Source: Candidatus Doudnabacteria bacterium (lineage in GTDB: Bacteria; Patescibacteriota; Doudnabacteria; UBA920; O2-02-FULL-48-8). From it: a DNA stretch of 64,000 nt. A program made the position numbers and the translations under genes. The notes under the pieces are model-generated. The model saw nothing but the letters and a program-made list of their open reading frames with translations, did no database searches and had not been told where the DNA came from. Shown piece by piece: positions 1-59,801 of this stretch; the first letter of the stretch is position 1; every line of letters begins with the position of its first letter. The stretch is from positions 67,168 to 131,167 of the forward strand of contig JACPKU010000004.1 of assembly GCA_016186915.1 (NCBI GenBank). Reading direction: 5' to 3'.

Positions 1-407
1 GAATTTACCGTTCTCTTGAAAAACATGAGAAGCTGGTTGAGTTTGCAGAAAAAGCTTGAGTCTTTCATCAGGCAACTCGCAGAGTAATAGAAAAGAGAAG
101 CCAGTAAGAACATCTGTCCTCTTCTATACCTAAAACCCCGGCCGTACTTGGTCGGGGTTTTAGCAAAAGTGCACTATATTCATTTGAGACTTTCGCGTTA
201 ATGGTCTTTGTTTCGGCTTTAGCGCCTAGAGCTTACCGCAGGACTCTTTTAGGTAGAGTGCACTTGCATGACTGGATTAATCATCCGATGCTCTCCTTTC
301 AATTTAAGTCTATTCCTAGGTTATTTTTTCGTCAAGACCAAAGCCTTGAATGTTTGCTGCGGATTTGCTAGGATATAGTGCTAAATAATCAACAAAGATT
401 ATAGATT

Positions 408-2156
408 ATGAACAAGATATTTTCGCTAATCTTAGCCATTTTTGTCCTTACTTTAGCTGCCTTCCCTGCAATTGGCGAGGCGGCCAATGGCTTATTTATC
501 AGTCAAACTTCTGTTAATTTACAAACTGGACAAAGCACGACTTTGAATGTCACTGTGCCGTTTGGAGAAACAGCCAATGTGTTGGGCAATACCAACACGA
601 GTGTGGCTACGGCGTATATTACTGGCAACTTTTTGTTTATCAGCGCATTGAACAACGGCAGTACCACAATTAGGGTCTGCACCAATAGTCTTAACTGCGT
701 GAGTGTCTTTGTTACCGTGAGCGGATCTGGTTCAGGCGGCCAGATCAGCTTTAGTCCAAGCTCGGTTTCTTTGAATGTCGGGGAGAGCCGCGTGGCCACA
801 GTATTTAATAGCACGGGAAACAGTTTGTTTGTTTCCAATAATTCTAATTCCAATGTTGCGAGCGTGTCACTGTCATTCAACAGCATTACTGTGCAGGGCC
901 TAAACAACGGCAGTACCACGATCACAATTTGCGCCAACAGTAACTTTAATAATCAGTGCGGCAGTTTGTTTGTCACAGTGAGTGGCTTTGGCGGCGGCGG
1001 GGATTTAACATTTAGCAACAGCAATCCGTTTCTCAACATCAGCGAGACCAGGACCATCAGCGTGTTCAACACGCAAAGCAACAGTTTATTTATTTCCAGC
1101 AATTCCAACCCAAACGTGGTGTTTGCATCTGTGTCATTCAATACCGTGAATTTGTTTGGCCAAAACAGCGGCACTGCTACGGTCCGAATTTGTGAGAACA
1201 ATTTAAGCCGTTGCGGCAACATTTTTGTCACGGTGGGCACTGGGGGTGGTGGCAATCAAGTCGTGATCAGCCAGGACAGCGTGGTTTTGAACGTTAACCA
1301 GAACATCAACCTTAATATTTTCGGGGCTTTCGGTTCATTCTTTATTTCCAATAATTCCAATTCTAATGTGGCAGACGCCAGTATCTCTGGCAACAACCTT
1401 TGGATTTTTGGCCGCCAGTCAGGGGTTACCACCATCAGGGTTTGCGCACTGAACAACTCTTCTTTCTGCGACACCGTGCTGGTCACCGTGGGCAGTGGCT
1501 CCACCAACCAAATAGTGTTTGAAACCAACAACGTCAACCTGACTGTTGGCGCCACTAAAACCATAAAGGTGTTCGACACGCAGAACAGTAACCAGTCCTT
1601 GTTTGTCTCCAACAATTCCAACACCAATGTGGTAGATGTGTCTGCAGGCGCTGATTATGTCAATTTGTTTGCCAAGCAGAACGGCTCTGCCAACATTATT
1701 ATCTGCCGCTCCTCAACCAGCTACTGCGGCATTCTTGCTGTCACCGTGGGCGGCATTATCTCTGGAAATTTGATTTATCAAAACGGCACACTGGTCAATG
1801 ACAACGGCACAATTTACATCACTTACAAAAATTCCAAAAGCGGCTTTGCGAATTTACCGGCGTTCACAGGCTTGGGCTTCAAACTGTCCAGCGTGATCAG
1901 CGGCTCCACCTCGTCCCTGACTAACACCGGCTATGTGATTAGTAACCCGAACATTGCTCATCCCTGGGGCAGTTGGTTGAAGAGCGGCCAGACCGTTTAC
2001 TTTGTCCACGAGTCAGGCTTAATCCCGATTCCAAGTTTTGACGTGTTTCTGAACAACGGGGGTACAAGCCGTTTGGTAGTGGATGCGAATTTCAGAGATT
2101 TCGCCATTAAATCAATTCTGCCTGTAATGAGCCCCGACGATCAGCGACTGAAATAA
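408..2156 (+). CDS. Secreted repetitive surface protein with five ~85-aa N/S/T-rich Ig-like repeats
   Basis: N-terminal signal peptide (MNKIFSLILAIFVLTLAAFPAIGEA). Five tandem ~85-aa repeats, each with ...LFVSNNSN..V...TTIRVC..N...CG.LFVTV.G plus G-rich linkers. Function unknown. Confidence 0.6.
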   Translation: MNKIFSLILAIFVLTLAAFPAIGEAANGLFISQTSVNLQTGQSTTLNVTVPFGETANVLGNTNTSVATAYITGNFLFISALNNGSTTIRVCTNSLNCVSVFVTVSGSGSGGQISFSPSSVSLNVGESRVATVFNSTGNSLFVSNNSNSNVASVSLSFNSITVQGLNNGSTTITICANSNFNNQCGSLFVTVSGFGGGGDLTFSNSNPFLNISETRTISVFNTQSNSLFISSNSNPNVVFASVSFNTVNLFGQNSGTATVRICENNLSRCGNIFVTVGTGGGGNQVVISQDSVVLNVNQNINLNIFGAFGSFFISNNSNSNVADASISGNNLWIFGRQSGVTTIRVCALNNSSFCDTVLVTVGSGSTNQIVFETNNVNLTVGATKTIKVFDTQNSNQSLFVSNNSNTNVVDVSAGADYVNLFAKQNGSANIIICRSSTSYCGILAVTVGGIISGNLIYQNGTLVNDNGTIYITYKNSKSGFANLPAFTGLGFKLSSVISGSTSSLTNTGYVISNPNIAHPWGSWLKSGQTVYFVHESGLIPIPSFDVFLNNGGTSRLVVDANFRDFAIKSILPVMSPDDQRLK

Positions 2157-2228
2157 AAGTATTTTTGTGCTATATTGATATTGAACAGCTTAAACTTATA
2201 GAAATTCAAGATTTCTTTAAGAAAGGGG

Positions 2229-2489
2229 GTGAATTTGATGGCAGGACATAGCAGAGGTTTACACTTGCTAACTTTTACTTTGTTGGTAATCGGGGGTCTT
2301 AATTGGCTGCTGTTGGCATTGTTTAATTGGGAGGTAGGCAGTTTGTTTGGCGGCATGGATGCCGTAGTATCCAAGATTATTTATATCTTGGTCGGATTGT
2401 CAGCGATTTATGAAGCGGCCACGCACGGTTCAAGATGCCGCGCTTGCAAGCCTGATGGCAGTGCACCAGCAGCGCCAATGAACCAATAA
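2229..2489 (+). CDS. DUF378-family small membrane protein
   Basis: IGGLNWLLLALFNW...LVGLSAIYEA is typical of the DUF378/YuzA family. Start is GTG at 2229 or ATG at 2238. Confidence 0.6.
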   Translation: MNLMAGHSRGLHLLTFTLLVIGGLNWLLLALFNWEVGSLFGGMDAVVSKIIYILVGLSAIYEAATHGSRCRACKPDGSAPAAPMNQ

Positions 2490-2602
2490 TTTTGTTTTCA
2501 GTACAGCCCTCTTTTAAAGATCATCTTTGCAATATGCAAAGATGATCTTTGTAATCTTTAGGCCTTGCATTTATAGGGACTTAACCGTAAACTTAAGTTG
2601 TC

Positions 2603-3358
2603 ATGGAAGAGACGATTAGCAATAAAAAATTGTTAACCACCCAAGAAGCGGTGGATGAACTGGTCGGGGAGCAATTCGTCGAATGGCTTTTCGAGTTTAT
2701 CGTTCACGAATTGCAAACCTGGCCGCCGCTGGAAAAAATCAGCAGCGGCAAATTCAAGCAAGAAAAAATTAGAAAATTTATGATCCAACGATACCTTGAT
2801 TCAAAAGCAGTCTGGGGAGGGACAGGAGAAGATCCGGGTTTTTTGGGTTTTGTGATTGCCAATCTTTCTGAATCAGACGACCCAACAGCTGAAACCGCGC
2901 TGTCTGCCATAGAAGTTAGATACGAAGAAGAAAAGCATGGCCTGTCCCGCGAGCTTTGGGAGAATTTAATGAAAGAGTTGGGGGTGGGAGCCGAAGAATT
3001 GAAGTTGTCGGAGCCGAAGGAGTCGGGCAGAAACTATGTTTCAGATTTGTCGGAGCTATATTCCGCCTCGGAGTGGCAGACCGCAGCGGGTGCTTTGGCT
3101 GCTTACCAGATAATGAACCTTGAGGAAAGCAGGGCGCTGGTGCAGCTGCTCAAAAATAACACCCAAGTTTCTGATCCTGGTTTGCAGGCTTTAAAAATCT
3201 CTGCGGAGCAGGATAATAAGACGGTGATTAATCCGGCCAAAATTTTGGAGAAGATAGTGTTTGATAAAGAGAATAAACAGCTGGTCTGGAATGGTGTTTG
3301 GCGCCATTTGGATGCGCGGAAACTGTATTGCGAAAAAATTATGAAATATTTGGAATAG
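2603..3358 (+). CDS. Hypothetical protein
   Basis: Long ORF in the coding-dense region. No recognisable motif. Confidence 0.4.
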   Translation: MEETISNKKLLTTQEAVDELVGEQFVEWLFEFIVHELQTWPPLEKISSGKFKQEKIRKFMIQRYLDSKAVWGGTGEDPGFLGFVIANLSESDDPTAETALSAIEVRYEEEKHGLSRELWENLMKELGVGAEELKLSEPKESGRNYVSDLSELYSASEWQTAAGALAAYQIMNLEESRALVQLLKNNTQVSDPGLQALKISAEQDNKTVINPAKILEKIVFDKENKQLVWNGVWRHLDARKLYCEKIMKYLE

Positions 3359-3363
3359 CGATA

Positions 3364-4182
3364 ATGCCGGCAAAGATTATTGACAGCAGGCAAATTGCCC
3401 AAACTATTATTGAGCGGTTAAAAACAGAGGTCAGTAAATTAAATTTTCGGCCTTTGTTTTGCGATATTCTGGTGGGGAGCGATCCTGTCTCTCTGTCATT
3501 TGTCAAGCTCAAAGGAAAGAGAGCAGAGGAGATAGGCTTGGATTTTAAGATGATTCAACTTTCAGAAAACACGACCACCGAGCAGTTGATTGAACAGATT
3601 GAGCAACTGGGGCGTGAGCCGAACCTTAGCGGTTTAATTGTGCAGCTGCCTTTGCCTCCCCACATCGACCAAAAAAAAATTTTGGATTCAATTGATCCAA
3701 GCCTTGATGCGGACTGTCTAAGCGGACAGTCAAAACTTGTGCCGCCGACTGCGGGTGCGGTTTTGACCATCCTTGATTCTTTGGGTCTGGACTTGTCCAG
3801 CAAGCAAATTTTAGTGGTTGGGCAAGGAGAGCTGGTTGGCAAGCCTGTGAGCAAATTGTTAAAACAAAGGGGACTAAGCATTATGTCGGCAGACAGGGCC
3901 ACTAAAAATTTATCGAACTTGACCAGATCAGCCGATGTAATAATTTCCGGAGCCGGTCAGCCTGGGCTGATTAAGAAAAACTCAATTAAGGACGGTGCGG
4001 TTTTGATTGATGCGGGTACAGCGGATCAGGCCGGCGGGATTGTGGGGGATATAGATACTGCTTCGGTTTCGGAGAAGGCCTCATATATTTCAGCCACCCC
4101 GGGCGGAGTGGGGCCGGTGACTGTGGCTAAACTCTTGGAAAATGTGGTCAAACTTGCTAAGATGAAAAAGAAGTATGTATGA
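3364..4182 (+). CDS. folD: Bifunctional methylenetetrahydrofolate dehydrogenase/cyclohydrolase
   Basis: MPAKIIDSRQIAQ...ILVGSDPVS...LPLPPHID...ATPGGVGPVTVAKLLEN are FolD hallmarks. Start placed at ATG 3364 inside the listed ORF. Confidence 0.85.
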   Translation: MPAKIIDSRQIAQTIIERLKTEVSKLNFRPLFCDILVGSDPVSLSFVKLKGKRAEEIGLDFKMIQLSENTTTEQLIEQIEQLGREPNLSGLIVQLPLPPHIDQKKILDSIDPSLDADCLSGQSKLVPPTAGAVLTILDSLGLDLSSKQILVVGQGELVGKPVSKLLKQRGLSIMSADRATKNLSNLTRSADVIISGAGQPGLIKKNSIKDGAVLIDAGTADQAGGIVGDIDTASVSEKASYISATPGGVGPVTVAKLLENVVKLAKMKKKYV

Positions 4183-21006: not shown

Positions 21007-21117
21007 TATGATGTCCTGTAATCAAGGGGACAACTGCGGCTCCGACAGAACTCGGATCCTGGGCCTCGGGATAAGGGGCAAATTGCTCTTCGGGCAAATT
21101 AGCCTGAAGGAGGGATT

Positions 21118-22056
21118 ATGAAACTCATGGATTGGGATCTTTTCGGCAAGTGGACTGGCGATGATCACCGTTCGTTGATCAGCGCTCTCGGTGAGGAGAA
21201 CGCGCGAGCCGTGAAGAGCGGCCAACTCGTTCTCAAGGTCACCAAGCCGGCAACGGAAACCGAGCCGGGAGAGTTCGTGCTGGAAGAGCCGGTCAGGCCG
21301 ATGTTCGACTCACACGGCCGGCGGATTCCGCCTCAAGGCATGAAAGCCAAGGCGGTGGATGCCAACCGCTCGTTCTACCTTGACCAGCCGAAGCTCGACT
21401 TCGGATCACGGCTGGCGCGGTTCGCCGAGCACTTCGGCTGCGGCACGTTCATGTCAGCCGATGAGTTCGAAGGCCGGTTCGTCGAGATTCTGCGGTGGCT
21501 GGCTACGGATCTGCTCACGGCCAACCTACCGATCAACGGCGTTGTGTTGCCGCTGGCCCTGCCGAAAATGCAAATCGACGACCTCGGCCAGTTCACGGAA
21601 GTGAAGCTCCTGGCCGCGGTCAAGCGGGCTTATGAGCAACAGTTCCCCGGGCGGAACTTTAAGAACTACCGCGCCGGCAAACTGGCCAAGCAGGTCAAGG
21701 TCGTGGCCGATAGCCATAACCGGCTGCTGCGGAAGCTGGCCGAAGGCCCGGTCGTGCTGGGCTACTCCCCGAACTGTCTGCAGGGATTCTCCATCCCGGC
21801 AGATCGGGAACAGATGAATACGCTGCCCGATGACTTGCTGCTGTGCGGCGTCATCGAGCCGGCAGCGGCCCTGACCACTTACTCGGACGTCCTGGCGCGT
21901 GATTACCAGACCCCGGGTCTGGATTGCGCCGCAGTCCAGTGGCAGTCGCGGGAGTTCTCGCTCTACTTCAGGGCCTACGACAGTGCGCTTGAGTTCGACC
22001 ACAGGCCTCTGCCTGCCTACGGCAACTCTTCCGGCGGCTTGTCCGTCCTCGGGTAG
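21118..22056 (+). CDS. Hypothetical protein in a GC-rich islet (~60% GC)
   Basis: Strong SD (aaggaggg, then ATG). Composition sharply different from flanks. Followed by a terminator. Confidence 0.5.
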   Translation: MKLMDWDLFGKWTGDDHRSLISALGEENARAVKSGQLVLKVTKPATETEPGEFVLEEPVRPMFDSHGRRIPPQGMKAKAVDANRSFYLDQPKLDFGSRLARFAEHFGCGTFMSADEFEGRFVEILRWLATDLLTANLPINGVVLPLALPKMQIDDLGQFTEVKLLAAVKRAYEQQFPGRNFKNYRAGKLAKQVKVVADSHNRLLRKLAEGPVVLGYSPNCLQGFSIPADREQMNTLPDDLLLCGVIEPAAALTTYSDVLARDYQTPGLDCAAVQWQSREFSLYFRAYDSALEFDHRPLPAYGNSSGGLSVLG

Positions 22057-49884: not shown

Positions 49885-50976
49885 TCATCGTATCTTAACA
49901 TATTTGGCGCCGCCTAAATTTTTTACGCGGCCCTTTAATTCCAACAAGCTTAAGGTAGCATTGATTTCGCTAACGGGCAATTTTACTTGTTTGACCAGAT
50001 CGTCAATGTGGATTGGCTCGCGCGTTAAATTCAAGAGCAGTTGGCTTTCCTGATCCGTGGTTGCCAGCGGCTCGGTTTCAGTAAGAACCTGAACATCCAA
50101 ATTCAGCTCTTCAAAAATGTCCTGCGCCGTACTGACTAGTTTTGCCCCTTGTTTAATGAGTTTGTTAGTGCCGCGGCTGGTCGGTGAAAAGATCGAGCCG
50201 GGAATGGCGAACACTTCTCGGCCTTGTTCCAGAGCATAGTTGGCTGTGATAAGTGCGCCGCTTTCTTCATCCGCTTCGATTACCAAGACGCCAATGCTTA
50301 AACCAGAAATCAGCCGGTTGCGGATCGGGAAGTTTTGTTTTTGGACATTTGAATTCAGCGCGTATTCAGAAACCAGACAGCCTTTTTCGGCAACTTCCTG
50401 GGCAAGATTGAAATTTGATCTAGGCGAGATGCTGTTATCCTGTAAATCAGAAGCCAGGATGGCCACTGGTTTGGCACCTGCATTGAGGCAGGCGTGTAAA
50501 GAGAAAGCATCCACGCCAAAAGCCAGACCGGAAATAATGTTGAGGCGGCTTTGTGCCAGGGCTGTCACAATCTCTTCGATTGCCTGTCTGCCGTATTGAC
50601 TGATTTTTCTGCTTCCCACCACTGCAATCCCGGTTTTAGACAAAACTTTTTTATCACCTCTTACATATAACAACGGTGGCGGAGTTGTGATTTCTTTCAG
50701 CAGGGCAGGATATTCAGATTCTAAAATGGTAACCATTTCTATCTTTTGTATCAATAGATCTTCCCAAGCTTTTCCCGGATTGATTCCGGGTTGTTTGGAC
50801 TTGACCGCGTCAATGGTTTTTTGATCGAGCTGGGCCTGGTTCAATTCAAAAGCTGAAGCTTCCCACGCAGTTTTATAATCTCCGAAATAATTTAATAAGC
50901 GCGTGAGTTTAACAGCACCCAGTTCAGGGATGAGGTTCAGGGCGTTGCCGTAGATTTTGTTCTTTGTTTCTGGCAT
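49885..50976 (-). CDS. dprA: DNA-processing protein DprA (Smf)
   Basis: Rossmann-like DprA core (IAVVGSRKISQYG...GLAFGVDAFSLHACLNAG..VAILASDL). C-terminal winged helix. Confidence 0.85.
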   Translation of the reverse strand: MPETKNKIYGNALNLIPELGAVKLTRLLNYFGDYKTAWEASAFELNQAQLDQKTIDAVKSKQPGINPGKAWEDLLIQKIEMVTILESEYPALLKEITTPPPLLYVRGDKKVLSKTGIAVVGSRKISQYGRQAIEEIVTALAQSRLNIISGLAFGVDAFSLHACLNAGAKPVAILASDLQDNSISPRSNFNLAQEVAEKGCLVSEYALNSNVQKQNFPIRNRLISGLSIGVLVIEADEESGALITANYALEQGREVFAIPGSIFSPTSRGTNKLIKQGAKLVSTAQDIFEELNLDVQVLTETEPLATTDQESQLLLNLTREPIHIDDLVKQVKLPVSEINATLSLLELKGRVKNLGGAKYVKIR

Positions 50977-51008
50977 TTAATTTGTGAGGGAGGTTGATAA
51001 GGAGCTGT

Positions 51009-51038
51009 TGACAAAAGGCCCCAAGTTTGCTAGAATGC
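51009..51038 (+). promoter_or_regulatory. Strong sigma70-like promoter TTGACA-17-TAGAAT
   Basis: ttgacaaaaggccccaagtttgctagaatgc. Confidence 0.5.
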
Positions 51039-51039
51039 A

Positions 51040-51480
51040 ATGTTTCCTTTATATTATTAGTTAGATCTTTAAAGTTTACAAGTGAGTTAGTATTTTCCAC
51101 CCTACTCTGCGAGCGGCGAAAGTGAGCAGCATCCCTCCTATTGTTCGCGAGTAACCTTAAGCTAAGGTCGAGATGGTTTTCCATTTTTACCTTACGCTCG
51201 TAGGTAGGGTTGAGAATGGTAAGCTCGGCACAGGCCGCAAAATTACCAGCTGTCAGGTTTCGCTCGAGTAGCCGGAAAATTATCGGCTGTCATCCCGCCT
51301 CGTGGGAACTTCGGCGGGATGCAGCCTACTTTCTCAGCCGGACGAACCGGCTTCCGAAGGTTAATTTTCCGGCTACTCTCGCTGCAAGTGTAAGTATGGA
51401 TACTACTTGCTCACGCCGGAGTTCTGGCGTAGGTTAATTTTGCGTCTATGCCTCGCTTGGAAAAAAAAAGGGGGGGGGAG
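51040..51480 (+). ncRNA. Candidate structured non-coding RNA or long leader with nested long-range inverted repeats, ending in an A9G9 tract
   Basis: No credible ORF. 17-bp inverted repeat cgagtagccggaaaatt / aattttccggctactcg (51270-51287 / 51363-51380). Outer complementarity between 51104-51130 and 51375-51420. Internal cccgcc..ggcggg hairpin. Not assignable to a known RNA family by eye. Confidence 0.3.
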
Positions 51481-51577
51481 GAGGAAGGTAAGCGTGCTGG
51501 ATTCTGGATAGTAACGAAAAGTTAGTGAACAGAGTTTAGTGCGTAATTGTCAAGTTACGGATCCAGAAGGAGGAGCT

Positions 51578-51709
51578 ATGGAAGACACTGAATCGGGGGA
51601 CTTCCCATCCGTGTTGGGTATGATCGTCCTCCTTGTCCTCGTCGTCCTCGCCGAATGCGTCATTTGGTTTTTTGAGGTCCGGGATTTTATCCTGGGCTGG
51701 CGTCGGTAA
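51578..51709 (+). CDS. Small hydrophobic protein (43 aa) in a GC-rich cassette
   Basis: Perfect SD aggagg 6 nt upstream. GC-rich. Confidence 0.3.
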   Translation: MEDTESGDFPSVLGMIVLLVLVVLAECVIWFFEVRDFILGWRR

Positions 51710-51740
51710 CCCAATCACAATCACCGGTGAGGAGAACACG

Positions 51741-52049
51741 ATGCCTTATAACGCATGGCAAGACCAGGTCGCCGGTGTTGCGGTCGGTTTCGCTGTTGTG
51801 GCGGCTGCCGCTGGCCTGGCATTCGGACCGTCCGAAACAAGCGGGGCTCTGCTCAGCTTGCTCGGCAAGGCTCTTGCTGTAGGCGCTGTGTTGCTCATCT
51901 GCCTGGCAATCTGCGCCCGTTTGGCCTGGCGACTGAAGAGAAGAAGAACTGGGAGCCTCCCGTTCGGTGAGGAAATGTACGACTCTCACGGAGGACTGCC
52001 TGGCTCAGAAAGGGAGGTGGCCCGGATGTCTCACGAGGGGCGCTAACGT
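51741..52049 (+). CDS. Small membrane protein (~102 aa) in a GC-rich cassette
   Basis: SD ggtgaggag. Ala/Gly/Val-rich TM segments, basic RLKRRR. Confidence 0.35.
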
Positions 52050-52121
52050 TGGCGTCGTTGTCGCAGCTGCGGAGGTCCCGCGGCTAAACTACAACGTCTG
52101 CTGTCGTTCGGAGGGAACGAG

Positions 52122-52325
52122 ATGCATCGTCGCGTCAGCTCGTTCGTACCGTCGCCTCCACCGGATCTGTCGGCGGAGGCTCCACTGGTCAAGGCCCTCC
52201 TCGGAGTACAGCTCTCGTCTGACGAGGCTGCTTCACTCCCGTTGAGCGCCGATCTCGGCAGCGTTCAGGACTGGAGACAGGTCATAGCGAGAAGCAACAG
52301 GCTCGCCGGCCTGGAGGAGTCCTGA
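52122..52325 (+). CDS. Small hypothetical protein (67 aa) in a GC-rich cassette
   Basis: SD ggaggg. GC-rich. Confidence 0.3.
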   Translation: MHRRVSSFVPSPPPDLSAEAPLVKALLGVQLSSDEAASLPLSADLGSVQDWRQVIARSNRLAGLEES

Positions 52326-52327
52326 CC

Positions 52328-52546
52328 ATGTCCCGCAGTCGTTGGACTGTAGGGGCTAGGTTCGTCCGGTCCCAGCGGGTCAGTCCGCCAGGACCGGCTT
52401 CACGGGGAGTCACGAGTCCTCTGCCGTCTCTCCCGAGGCAGCAGCCGAAGGCGGTCGAACCGCCACCGAGTGCAACCAAGGAAGAGCAGCGAGAGTGGGC
52501 TCGCAAGATTTTTGACGGCATGTTCCTACCATCCCGCCAGTAAGAC
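52328..52546 (+). CDS. Small hypothetical protein (71 aa) in a GC-rich cassette
   Basis: SD ggagg. Followed by a terminator at 52583-52620. Confidence 0.3.
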
Positions 52547-52582
52547 CGATACCCTGATCCCAGCCAGGGTGCCAAAGCAACA

Positions 52583-52620
52583 AGGCTCGTCGTTTCCTTA
52601 AACGACGAGCCTCTTTTTTT
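52583..52620 (+). terminator. Rho-independent terminator (ggctcgtcgtttccttaaacgacgagcc + T7)
   Basis: Long perfect stem plus TTTTTTT. Confidence 0.6.
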
Positions 52621-52814
52621 GTAGTGGTTATCTTCAATAAGTTCTCATCCTGTTTACCATCGCGAGCGAGGATAAGCACAGTTCATTGGGAGCGTGTTGG
52701 TCTGTTAAGAAGATTGCTTTGTCTGCTAAACTTAACGCTATCCCTCCTCGCAATGGTAACCGCACTAGAACCATCGCGAGCGAGGGAACGTCAGATGTTC
52801 CGGAGCGAAGCGAT

Positions 52815-53153
52815 CTAATCTAAGTCGTTATATAGATCTCTCCAATCTTTGTTATTAGTTTCGATAAGTTTAATTTTCTTTTTTCTAGAACCTGCCTTGA
52901 TTTGTTTTTCTCTTGCCAAAACAGCATCATAGTCGTCTCCGATCTCAAAATACACCAGCTTAGTGATATTGTATTTTTTAGTAAATCCATGAACGAGTTT
53001 GTTTTTGTGTTCCCAGACCCGAGCTTTTAAAGGTTTGCTAGTAAACCCAGTATAAAGTGTAGTATTTGTCGGGTTCGTCATGATATAAACAAAATACTGC
53101 TCGTCTTGCATATATATAAAGATTGCTTCACCCCGCCAAGGCGGGGTTCGCAA
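52815..53153 (-). CDS. GIY-YIG-family nuclease (COG2827-like)
   Basis: YFVYIMTN..NTTLYTGFTSKPLKARVWEHK....GFTKKY....LVYFE..DDYD.AVLAREKQIK. Confidence 0.7.
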   Translation of the reverse strand: MRTPPWRGEAIFIYMQDEQYFVYIMTNPTNTTLYTGFTSKPLKARVWEHKNKLVHGFTKKYNITKLVYFEIGDDYDAVLAREKQIKAGSRKKKIKLIETNNKDWRDLYNDLD

Positions 53154-53189
53154 TGGTATAAAAATAAAGAGTTAAGTTGAATTACTATA

Positions 53190-59113: not shown

Positions 59114-59356
59114 TTGGTTGAAGTAAAAAAGAAAGAAGGAGAATCGTTTGAAAGTCTCCTGAGACGTTTTAACCGCAAGATTCAGCAAAGCGGTGTTTTG
59201 ATTCGCGCTCGAAAAATCAGATTCTATACGCCGAACAAATCACGCAATTTGCTTCGGGTTGATGCGGCCAGAAGAGCTGAGAACCGGGAAAAAAGGGAAG
59301 AGTTGAAAAAACTTGGCAAACTGCCGCTTTTCAGCCGCCGCAATAAACGAAAGTAA
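59114..59356 (+). CDS. rpsU: 30S ribosomal protein S21
   Basis: ESFE.LLRRF.R...Q.GVL...R...FY..P...R. Confidence 0.8.
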   Translation: MVEVKKKEGESFESLLRRFNRKIQQSGVLIRARKIRFYTPNKSRNLLRVDAARRAENREKREELKKLGKLPLFSRRNKRK

Positions 59357-59363
59357 GAAAAAA

Positions 59364-59801
59364 ATGATTGAAGAAAAAATCGAAGCGGATTTAAAGAAGG
59401 CTATGAAAGAAAAAAACGCGCTGGTGCTTTCCGCGCTTCGAAATCTGAAAGCCGAGATGAAGAATGTTGCGATTGCCAAGGGTCAAAAGCTTGCGGATGA
59501 AGAAGTGATACAGGTCGTGAACAAAAAAGTGAGGCAGCACAAGGATTCGATTGAAAGCTTTAAGGCAGGAGGCAGGGCAGATCTGGAAAAACTAGAACAG
59601 GAGCAGATGACGGTGTTGCAGCAATATTTACCTAAACCACTTTCCGAGGACGAGGTGCAGGACTTGGTCAAAAAAGTTATTAGTGAGCTTGTTGCCCAGC
59701 CCCAAGATTTTGGCAAAGTTATGAAAGAAGTTTTAAGCCGGGCTGGTGGGCGGACTGACGGGAGCATCGTTTCTAAAATCGTCAAAGAAGAATTAAAGTA
59801 A
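59364..59801 (+). CDS. GatB/YqeY-domain protein
   Basis: LKKAMKEKNALVLSALRNLKAE is YqeY-like. Start at ATG 59364. Confidence 0.65.
   Translation: MIEEKIEADLKKAMKEKNALVLSALRNLKAEMKNVAIAKGQKLADEEVIQVVNKKVRQHKDSIESFKAGGRADLEKLEQEQMTVLQQYLPKPLSEDEVQDLVKKVISELVAQPQDFGKVMKEVLSRAGGRTDGSIVSKIVKEELK

Follow-up and report, generated by a model that had tools for sequence, protein, structure and literature searches.

What is encoded in the interval between the dprA and pth genes of Candidatus Doudnabacteria? In the 64-kb stretch of DNA analyzed here (contig JACPKU010000004.1; hereafter, the window), the original prediction had placed in this interval a strong promoter, a structured non-coding region of about 440 nt, a homopolymer tract, a GC-rich cassette of four small genes and a terminator, and had interpreted the whole as a horizontally acquired module. 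Nearly all of the listed features are present in the sequence, with coordinates shifted by 1-2 nt, and the succession of a genuine RNA and small, partly membrane-protein open reading frames (ORFs) stands. The finding is real and is more interesting for the RNA than for the cassette: our analysis shows that positions 51087-51221 encode an RNA of a structured, strand-specific family that is inherited vertically in Candidatus Doudnabacteria and had not been catalogued before, a new family of a known general kind, the lineage-specific structured non-coding RNAs. The genes are ordered der-pth, small ORFs, RNA and dprA-PGA_cap, with the RNA and the ORFs reading away from dprA, and this arrangement is syntenic wherever flanks are present, including relatives whose DprA proteins are 41-73% identical.

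The structured character of the region was confirmed by folding, as the segment 51040-51500 reached -189 kcal/mol versus -145 ± 6.6 kcal/mol for dinucleotide shuffles (z = -6.6), and none of 100 shuffles was as good. The 440 nt resolve into a leader of about 45 nt, a core of 135 nt and a duplicated extension of about 240 nt. It is the core, a stretch of about 135 nt nearly identical in all gaps of the first relatives compared, that defines the family, and its parts are as follows:

51087-51221, plus strand: core RNA, 135 nt (covariation in 19 sequences, RNAalifold and covariance model)
51088-51115 with 51195-51221, plus strand: closing stem P0/P1, 27 bp (covariation)
between the closing stem and P2, plus strand: junction segment GGYGAAN (consensus fold)
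51122-51129 with 51141-51148, plus strand: P2 hairpin (covariation)
51130-51140, plus strand: loop CAUCCCUCCUA, 11 nt, invariant in every sequence
after P2, plus strand: junction RAGUARCCnnAAGY (consensus fold)
51163-51168 with 51189-51194, plus strand: P3 (covariation)
51171-51176 with 51181-51186, plus strand: P4, closed by a UUUU loop (covariation)

Homologues were collected by scanning metagenomes of the Joint Genome Institute (JGI) with the invariant 18-mer CAGCATCCCTCCTATTGT, which retrieved 22 loci (numbered here, like the other contigs, with the prefix L), 19 of them true homologues; the alignment consists of 19 distinct sequences, with L043 left out of the model. The structure was first drawn by eye and then tested formally against slid partners and 500 shuffles. 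In the 19-sequence alignment, 93.9% of the paired cells were complementary, versus 40-46% with the partners slid, both sides had changed at 32 of the 44 pairs, and none of the 500 shuffles reached any of the measures. RNAalifold independently returned the same fold, with 47 pairs (34 of them compensatory) and with the loop closed to 11 invariant nucleotides. The overall shape is that of a 27-bp closing stem carrying a three-way junction, one arm of which displays the invariant loop. The sole structural claim of the original prediction that fails is an outer pairing of 51104-51130 with 51375-51420, in place of which covariation joins the two strands of the closing stem listed above.

The strand of the RNA is fixed by its many G-U pairs, and the covariance model scored 142 bits on the plus strand versus 17 bits on the minus strand, finding exactly one copy per locus. 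L043, although outside the model, scored 127.7 bits and has the same synteny, while the model detected no RNA beside dprA in L042, a Patescibacteria genome with a different gene order. Mean column identity of the RNA alignment was about 80%, as compared with 41-73% for the neighboring DprA protein. Wherever flanks were available, the RNA lay between divergent dprA and convergent pth, in 18 homologues and even at a DprA identity of 41-42%; this synteny held for every Doudnabacteria-type locus with flanks, and the lone exception in location was L041. Furthermore, the contigs of DprA relatives with 54-73% identity carried der-pth, a gap of about 1-1.4 kb and dprA-PGA_cap in all cases except the short contig L015, with the small ORFs of the gap on the strand opposite to dprA in each of them. 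The DprA of the window has exactly the sequence of one encoded by a Candidatus Doudnabacteria metagenome-assembled genome. A search of genome contigs with DprA returned only proteobacterial loci, at 36-44% identity.

Rfam 15, whose models include signal recognition particle (SRP) RNA, 6S RNA, RNase P, tmRNA, OLE, Y RNA/YrlA, GOLLD, ROOL, raiA and the known riboswitches, identified only three tRNAs in the 64-kb window at gathering thresholds. Relaxing the search to E ≤ 10 on positions 50900-52900 and on a 171-nt core added only chance-level matches of 9-19 bits, far below threshold, so the region was assigned neither to a housekeeping RNA nor to any other recognizable family, in keeping with the original prediction, and no description of this RNA was found in the literature. 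Several known families were rejected on topology. Some homologues carry GAA(A)GGAAGCAGCA, which resembles the GGAAGGAAGCAGC of SRP RNA. In helix 8 of SRP RNA, a GNRA tetraloop is closed by the 5' and 3' strands, with a symmetric and an asymmetric loop (AGG / AGCA). A divergent SRP (4.5S) RNA was discarded because GGAA/GUGA pairs downstream with UUCC/UCGC as P2 and not upstream as in helix 8; the pair types at one P2 position were GC in eight sequences, UG in seven, CG in three and UA in one. A 6S RNA, a largely double-stranded rod whose large central bubble is open on both strands, was likewise discarded: on the 3' side P3 runs on into P1, which leaves no unpaired stretch on that strand, and the unpaired nucleotides are all on the 5' side. 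Topology also argues against the 5S and Y RNA readings. A spurious 86-aa ORF, called at 50924-51184 on the minus strand (also at L001:127-387), covers the beginning of dprA and reaches over the RNA's 5' half; public annotations probably hide the RNA under such hypothetical proteins.

How the RNA would be expressed can be read from the signals around it:

51008-51036, plus strand: promoter TTGACA (51008-51013), a 17-nt spacer ending TTGC, and TAGAAT (51031-51036), with 11 of 12 consensus matches and an upstream TG
51043-51086 (start approximate), plus strand: AT-rich 5' leader, conserved in L013 and L015
51081-51053, minus strand: candidate dprA promoter TTGTAA-17-AATAAT, found by promoter scoring inside the leader of the RNA
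52583-52620, plus strand: intrinsic terminator with a perfect 13-bp stem (52583-52612), a 4-nt loop and T7; no convincing terminator precedes it downstream of the promoter

The RNA is read away from dprA, behind a conserved promoter close to the consensus: one of the TTGACA-17-TGnTAAGAT type precedes it in each of the 18 dprA-linked loci inspected. The transcription start itself is predicted. Use of the minus-strand dprA promoter would place the dprA mRNA antisense to the RNA over about 40 nt, which would explain the conservation of the AT-rich leader and could couple the expression of dprA and the RNA. In the window, no hairpin followed by a U-run occurs in the first 420 nt after the core, and there is no terminator before 52583. 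Several relatives have strong terminators directly after the core, each with U7, at -26.6 (L027), -24.2 (L038) and -11.5 kcal/mol (L031), and L014 and L037 have them there too, as judged by eye; in L016 and L040 the terminator follows an extension. Counting these last and that of L033, the RNA is followed by a terminator in at least seven loci. The first ORF of the terminator-bearing loci starts about 30-60 nt past the terminator, and inspection by eye revealed no promoter-like sequence between the two, so that these ORFs appear to be expressed by read-through.

The remainder of the 440-nt region is a second structured domain, which in the window occurs twice, one copy nested in the other:

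51222-51458, plus strand: second structured domain (extension), with homologues in L013, L018 and L040
51266-51378, plus strand: main helix and hairpin H1 of the inner extension copy (repeat analysis and domain comparison)

The long helix of this extension, GGCA..CGCAAAAUUACC / GGUUAAUUUUGCG..UGCC in the window, encloses hairpins; its consensus over the window, L013, L018 and L040 is GGYAC..GUAAAAUUACC / GGUUAAUUUUAC..GURCC with two hairpins inside, and both the long helix and hairpin H1 show compensatory changes in the latter three loci. L016 has a long extension in the same place, the homology of which is uncertain, as the pairs did not hold in the alignment, and the extension is missing from loci such as L014, L017, L019, L025, L027, L031 and L038. 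It is a sublineage-specific second domain. The complete nested second copy occupies 51258-51386, the duplication being marked by the direct repeats D1 and D3. This nested duplication accounts for these repeats and for two features that had been singled out from the sequence, i.e., the 17-bp arms, which form a perfect inverted repeat at 51266-51282 and 51362-51378 with a spacing of 79 nt, and the cccgcc..ggcggg hairpin at 51294-51319. All Logan assemblies break within 51290-51339, the dprA contig ending at 51310 and the cassette contigs beginning at 51339, and the break coincides with the 31-nt hairpin catcccgcc-N13-ggcgggatg. We suspect an artefact of the de Bruijn graph, and a heterogeneous or invertible loop is possible.

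Between the extension and the cassette lies the homopolymer tract:

51461-51488, plus strand: purine tract of A9 (51461-51469), G9 (51470-51478) and AGGAGGAAGG (51479-51488), by direct reading

The tract is of the kind that had been predicted, and three observations speak against its proposed role as a slippage-prone switch: (i) it is absent from all relatives, which have short, non-homopolymeric, mixed purine stretches at this position; (ii) the five Logan contigs crossing it (L002, L003 and L005-L007) all have the same tract; and (iii) it resides in untranslated RNA about 100 nt upstream of the first ORF, outside any credible ORF and outside any promoter spacer. At the level of assemblies, a phase-variable locus is not supported, and A9G9 would instead be a lineage-specific expansion of a purine-rich linker.

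The cassette that follows the tract comprises four ORFs:

51578-51709, plus strand: o1, 43 aa, one predicted transmembrane (TM) segment, Shine-Dalgarno (SD) sequence AGGAGG 4 nt upstream (ORF list and gene caller)
51741-52046, plus strand: o2, 101 aa, two predicted TM segments and a charged C-terminus (ORF list)
52122-52325, plus strand: o3, 67 aa, soluble, codon-position GC 0.68 / 0.52 / 0.71 (ORF list)
52328-52543, plus strand: o4, 71 aa, Pro- and Arg-rich, starting 2 nt past the o3 stop (ORF list)

Apart from o2, which is one residue shorter than the 102 aa given before, their lengths agree with the original prediction, and each has a properly spaced SD; that they are four genes is an interpretation, as ORFs of about 100 aa are also found on the opposite strand. 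The SD spacing, the tight packing on one strand and gene-caller calls in independent assemblies support coding, and o1-o4 are probably fast-evolving, lineage-specific small proteins. The first SD-led ORF after the RNA is a small TM protein in most relatives, and over all loci TM-containing open frames amount to 27 of 147 on the strand of the RNA (plus) versus 7 of 153 on the minus strand, in 15 versus 4 loci. On the other side, codon-position GC is rather flat except in o3, and by our own estimate chance alone would yield about three ORFs of around 100 aa in DNA this rich in GC. As RNA, the cassette does not fold remarkably well (z = -1.7 in its first half; -4.4 in its second, terminator included).

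Searches for relatives of these proteins were almost entirely negative. Among 5.8 billion protein clusters o2 matched only itself, as did o4 among 1.84 billion representative proteins, while a concatenated search with o1, o3 and o4 returned no match, not even the queries themselves, and is uninformative, as proteins this short are apparently not indexed. A marginal similarity of o3 to an ORF of L040 (E = 0.003 in a database of 546 pieces) was not significant in a profile test, and profiles built from the ORFs of relatives failed to retrieve o1, o3 and o4 (E = 0.8-5 or not listed). For the same reason, we do not claim the small-protein families suggested by the by-eye motifs AYGVP, LYDEHGR, PPRLVK, C-terminal LEES, NFFR and A..IF..MF, whose profiles were not significant. 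A holin assignment of o2 was rejected as well: the match to Pfam PF07332 (Phage_holin_3_6), over the TM segments, scored 18.3 bits against a cut-off of 28.4 (E = 0.0024), the best PHROGs holin match had E = 0.41, and no endolysin gene is nearby. The same RNA with small ORFs recurs at the same site in other genomes. Between species, the cassettes could not be aligned as DNA, and the Logan contigs of this organism are all 100% identical; runs SRR12113384 to SRR12113430 of the source project contain this genome.

What, then, does the RNA do? The loop CAUCCCUCCUA contains CCUCCU, the core of the anti-Shine-Dalgarno (anti-SD) sequence of 16S rRNA, and is complementary to AGGAGG(G)AU. In the explanation we favor, to which we would give about an even chance, a stable RNA acts through this anti-SD-like loop, with read-through into a native small-protein operon. 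The RNA would be abundant, stable and functional in its own right rather than only a leader, and its exposed loop would pair with mRNA purine tracts that resemble the SD, among them the AGGAGG(G) sites of the ORFs that follow the RNA; alternatively, the loop might bind a factor that normally recognizes the 3' end of 16S rRNA. In the window, with no terminator in between, the transcript would run into the small ORFs, membrane proteins first, and end at 52583-52620, so that the small proteins would be expressed by read-through here as they would be past leaky terminators in some relatives, and they may be partners of the RNA. Three sets of loci argue that the RNA is its own gene and not merely a leader, i.e., (i) L025, in which not a single ORF separates the RNA from pth; (ii) L041, in which a diverged copy of the RNA (102 bits, 1401-1533) abuts a tRNA-Ile(UAU) at 1526-1599 with no small ORF after it; and (iii) the terminator-bearing loci described above.

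Several points weigh against this explanation. The ends and the stability of the transcript are deduced from sequence, and the argument for action in trans draws on those few loci, while most Doudnabacteria loci have same-strand ORFs apparently lacking a promoter of their own, as a cis-regulatory leader would. As the loop is invariant, covariation is silent on whether it is free or paired elsewhere. No complement of the loop longer than 10 nt was found elsewhere in the 64-kb window, the short matches being ordinary SDs, and by our own count only about 5 of the 19 first-ORF SDs extend the match to GGAGGG, which makes pairing with the own operon no more specific than pairing with any SD. A partnership of the RNA with the small proteins is speculative, because these proteins have no significant homology across loci. 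Two ribosome-binding sites of the window, AGGAGGGAUUAUG at 21108-21122 (plus strand) and AAGGAGGGAGACAUG at about 30126 (minus strand), match the loop over 8-9 nt, which is one G beyond the canonical SD; should the RNA work by pairing, they might be among its targets.

The alternative that survives best, though we regard it as rather unlikely, is that the RNA is a cis-regulatory leader of the small membrane-protein operon (an attenuator, a riboswitch-like element or an SD-sequestering one) and has no role in trans. Same-strand, SD-led small ORFs, usually with a TM protein first, follow the RNA in 17 of the 19 loci, and L014, L027, L031, L037 and L038 look attenuator-like, given the short distance from terminator to ORF and the absence of a visible promoter noted above. 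The loop is complementary to SDs of the AGGAGG(G)AU type such as those of L013, L016 and L033, and the junction-rich fold, with its invariant junction nucleotides and covarying stems, resembles riboswitch aptamers. However, the 27-bp closing helix is far too stable for a ligand-switched P1, the terminators neither share a common sequence nor overlap the closing helix, and no conserved antiterminator alternative is visible. Riboswitches control conserved functions, whereas the ORFs that would be regulated here are not conserved; L025 retains the RNA with no ORF, in L041 it adjoins a tRNA, and a near-consensus constitutive promoter is typical of stable RNAs.

Returning to the RNA as a gene in its own right, the closest known counterpart is the OLE RNA of Bacillota, in which a CCUCCU anti-SD mimic is bound by the ribosomal protein bS21 and whose gene adjoins that of a membrane partner, OapA (PMC12054373). 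The two RNAs are alike in being highly conserved, lineage-restricted and structured, in lying directly upstream of a small TM-protein gene, in mimicking the 16S anti-SD with CCUCCU (PMC12054373), and in that the function of OLE, too, long stayed unknown (for years) despite strong conservation. They differ in that OLE is about 600 nt long and of another architecture, its Rfam model having no match here; in that its anti-SD mimic is paired within P6, as opposed to the hairpin loop of the Doudnabacteria RNA; in that OapA is a conserved 21-kDa protein, whereas the membrane ORFs here are unconserved orphans; and in that binding of bS21 has been demonstrated for OLE, while the Doudnabacteria RNA is known as sequence. 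Genes for bS21 and YqeY lie at about 59114-59800 (gene calls of L002), some 7.7 kb downstream of the RNA, and are mentioned as context only; pairing of rpsU with yqeY is common in bacteria. The OLE paper mentions unpublished evidence for YqeY (PMC12054373).

A stem of the Doudnabacteria RNA also contains an SD/anti-SD-like duplex (CCUACCU / AGGUAGG). A bolder and in our view doubtful proposal is that the RNA is an essential, lineage-wide component of a ribonucleoprotein in which the free loop, mimicking the 16S 3' end, and the stem duplex engage translation initiation through bS21 or another factor of the 30S platform, perhaps tethered to the membrane by the co-transcribed TM proteins. It would then be a counterpart of the OLE particle in the candidate phyla radiation (CPR), evolved independently, and a copy would have been captured by the phage-like contig L041. 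This contig (JGI Ga0172379_10047958, 1-3793, 32% GC) also carries a tRNA-Thr, a Fic/DOC gene and a weak manA-RNA-like match; the first ORF of the contig encodes the C-terminal part of a phage "RNA-binding protein" (phrog_850, E = 3e-5) that may be Ro60-like. No Ro-like gene was found near the RNA in the Doudnabacteria loci, and an Rfam scan of L041 at E ≤ 1, which would cover the Y-RNA models, gave only tRNAs and weak matches. Long, apparently non-coding stretches of L041 (about 1240-1400 and 1600-2280) and a repeated element, ccccattagt[ag]aattaaataattaa, hint at further RNAs.

Trans-acting small RNAs with anti-SD-like C/U-rich loops include CcsR ("cuckoo", with CCUCCUCCC loops), AbcR and RsaE/RoxS, and the cyanobacterial Yfr1 has an ultraconserved unpaired motif. 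With these the Doudnabacteria RNA shares a short, invariant, pyrimidine-rich motif complementary to the SD, located in a hairpin loop or single strand, and a promoter and, in several loci, a terminator of its own. In contrast to these simple hairpins of 55-120 nt, it spans 135 nt and is built as a three-way junction on a 27-bp stem, with further invariant junction nucleotides; the Rfam library had no match here, a comparison made without checking which of these small RNA families it holds. In Escherichia coli, 6S RNA (ssrS) is co-transcribed with the downstream ygfA gene. An abundant, stable RNA with a strong promoter, a long closing helix and a co-transcribed downstream protein gene is also what we propose here, but the two-stranded central bubble of 6S RNA is absent, the junction lying wholly on the 5' side with P3 running straight into P1, and the Rfam 6S model had no match.

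In the mRNAs of type I toxins (hok, tisB and aapA1, for example), a long structured 5' untranslated region (UTR) with an internal anti-SD precedes the ORF of a small hydrophobic peptide. A module of this kind, in which a small hydrophobic peptide (o1 in the window) would be the toxin and the structured 5' UTR with its anti-SD would keep the mRNA inert, seems improbable to us. The architecture is similar to that of these mRNAs: the 5' UTR is highly structured, its CCUCC element could mask an SD, the leader probably has divergent dprA transcription running antisense across it, and the first ORF is a single-TM peptide of 39-51 aa in 6 of the 19 loci (the window, L013, L017, L019, L037 and L040). 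Conservation, however, is reversed, as the RNA is invariant, far more so than expected of a type I toxin UTR, and the peptide is dispensable; the RNA persists with no such peptide (L018, L020, L021, L025, L028 and L041) or with proteins of 73-123 aa and 2-4 TM segments. It is, moreover, strictly single-copy and fixed in position over a deep lineage, neither a promoter nor a terminator of an antisense RNA was identified, and PADLOC gave no match. The type I toxin-like reading suits no more than a minority of the loci.

Whether the cassette is native or foreign was judged from its composition and from the relatives. GC content is indeed elevated, at 0.57-0.65 over 51550-52600 as compared with 0.466 for the whole window, yet in 18 of 19 loci the gap exceeds dprA in GC content, and at this site the relatives, too, have small ORFs, mostly for membrane proteins. 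Ala, Gly, Pro and Arg make up 36% of the residues of the cassette versus 23% in the flanking genes (Lys, Asn, Ile, Phe and Tyr, 10% versus 28%), and this amino-acid composition explains the GC excess. GC at four-fold degenerate third codon positions (GC3) is 0.53-0.78 in the cassette as compared with 0.50-0.60 in host genes, i.e., host-like, and recent horizontal transfer is therefore not supported. Neither phages nor plasmids matched the whole element in blastn; scans of IMG/VR viral contigs gave nothing with an 18-mer and, with a 16-mer, two matches that the covariance model rejected. The suggestion of a toxin-antitoxin, defense or mobile-element remnant fared no better, for PADLOC had no match to the cassette, PHROGs matches were at chance level (best E = 0.07) and no Pfam match exceeded the threshold. 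The horizontally acquired module governed by an RNA and A9G9 slippage can, hence, be set aside as very improbable, since its local GC of 0.60-0.65 against 0.47, its orphan ORFs, the weak holin-like match of o2 and the selfish GIY-YIG nuclease gene next door are outweighed by the synteny and GC-richness of the same site in relatives, the host-like GC3, the lack of similarity to phages, plasmids and IMG/VR contigs, database matches that are weak and below threshold, and a tract that is unique to this genome, invariant in five assemblies and placed where it could switch neither an ORF nor the promoter. The cassette is a native, fast-evolving companion of the RNA, not foreign DNA, and the GC-rich cassette and the A9G9 tract, no longer evidence of a foreign, phase-variable module, are removed as a false lead.

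Between the cassette and pth lie a nuclease gene and repeats:

52815-53153, minus strand: GIY-YIG nuclease gene (Pfam E = 5.6e-13), between the cassette terminator and pth
52624-53160: region of repeats flanking this gene, with two copies of ACCATCGCGAGCGAGG (52656 and 52770) and, near 52745 and 53140, related ..CTCGCAATGGTA.. motifs

No GIY-YIG gene is called at this site in the fetched relatives; L017 and L033 have there a small homologous minus-strand ORF, identified by Pfam in L017 as a DUF559-type endonuclease. The end of the gap next to pth thus resembles a site where small selfish nuclease genes settle. Just beyond pth, L017 (1-1223) and L019 (166-3445) carry an RVT_1 reverse transcriptase and bAvd, typical of diversity-generating retroelements, and the neighborhood of L016 contains HicAB and an IS200/IS605 Y1 transposase.

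The RNA is more conserved than the proteins encoded beside it, has a near-consensus promoter and occupies one fixed locus across Doudnabacteria, and for these reasons it likely does something important. To our knowledge, hardly any non-coding RNAs other than the universal ones have been characterized in CPR bacteria, whose genomes are tiny. With the alignment and the covariance model, the family could be annotated throughout the CPR genomes, in which the RNA now lies under spurious ORF calls, and the invariant anti-SD-like loop provides a concrete, testable handle on its function, be it pairing with targets or binding of a protein.

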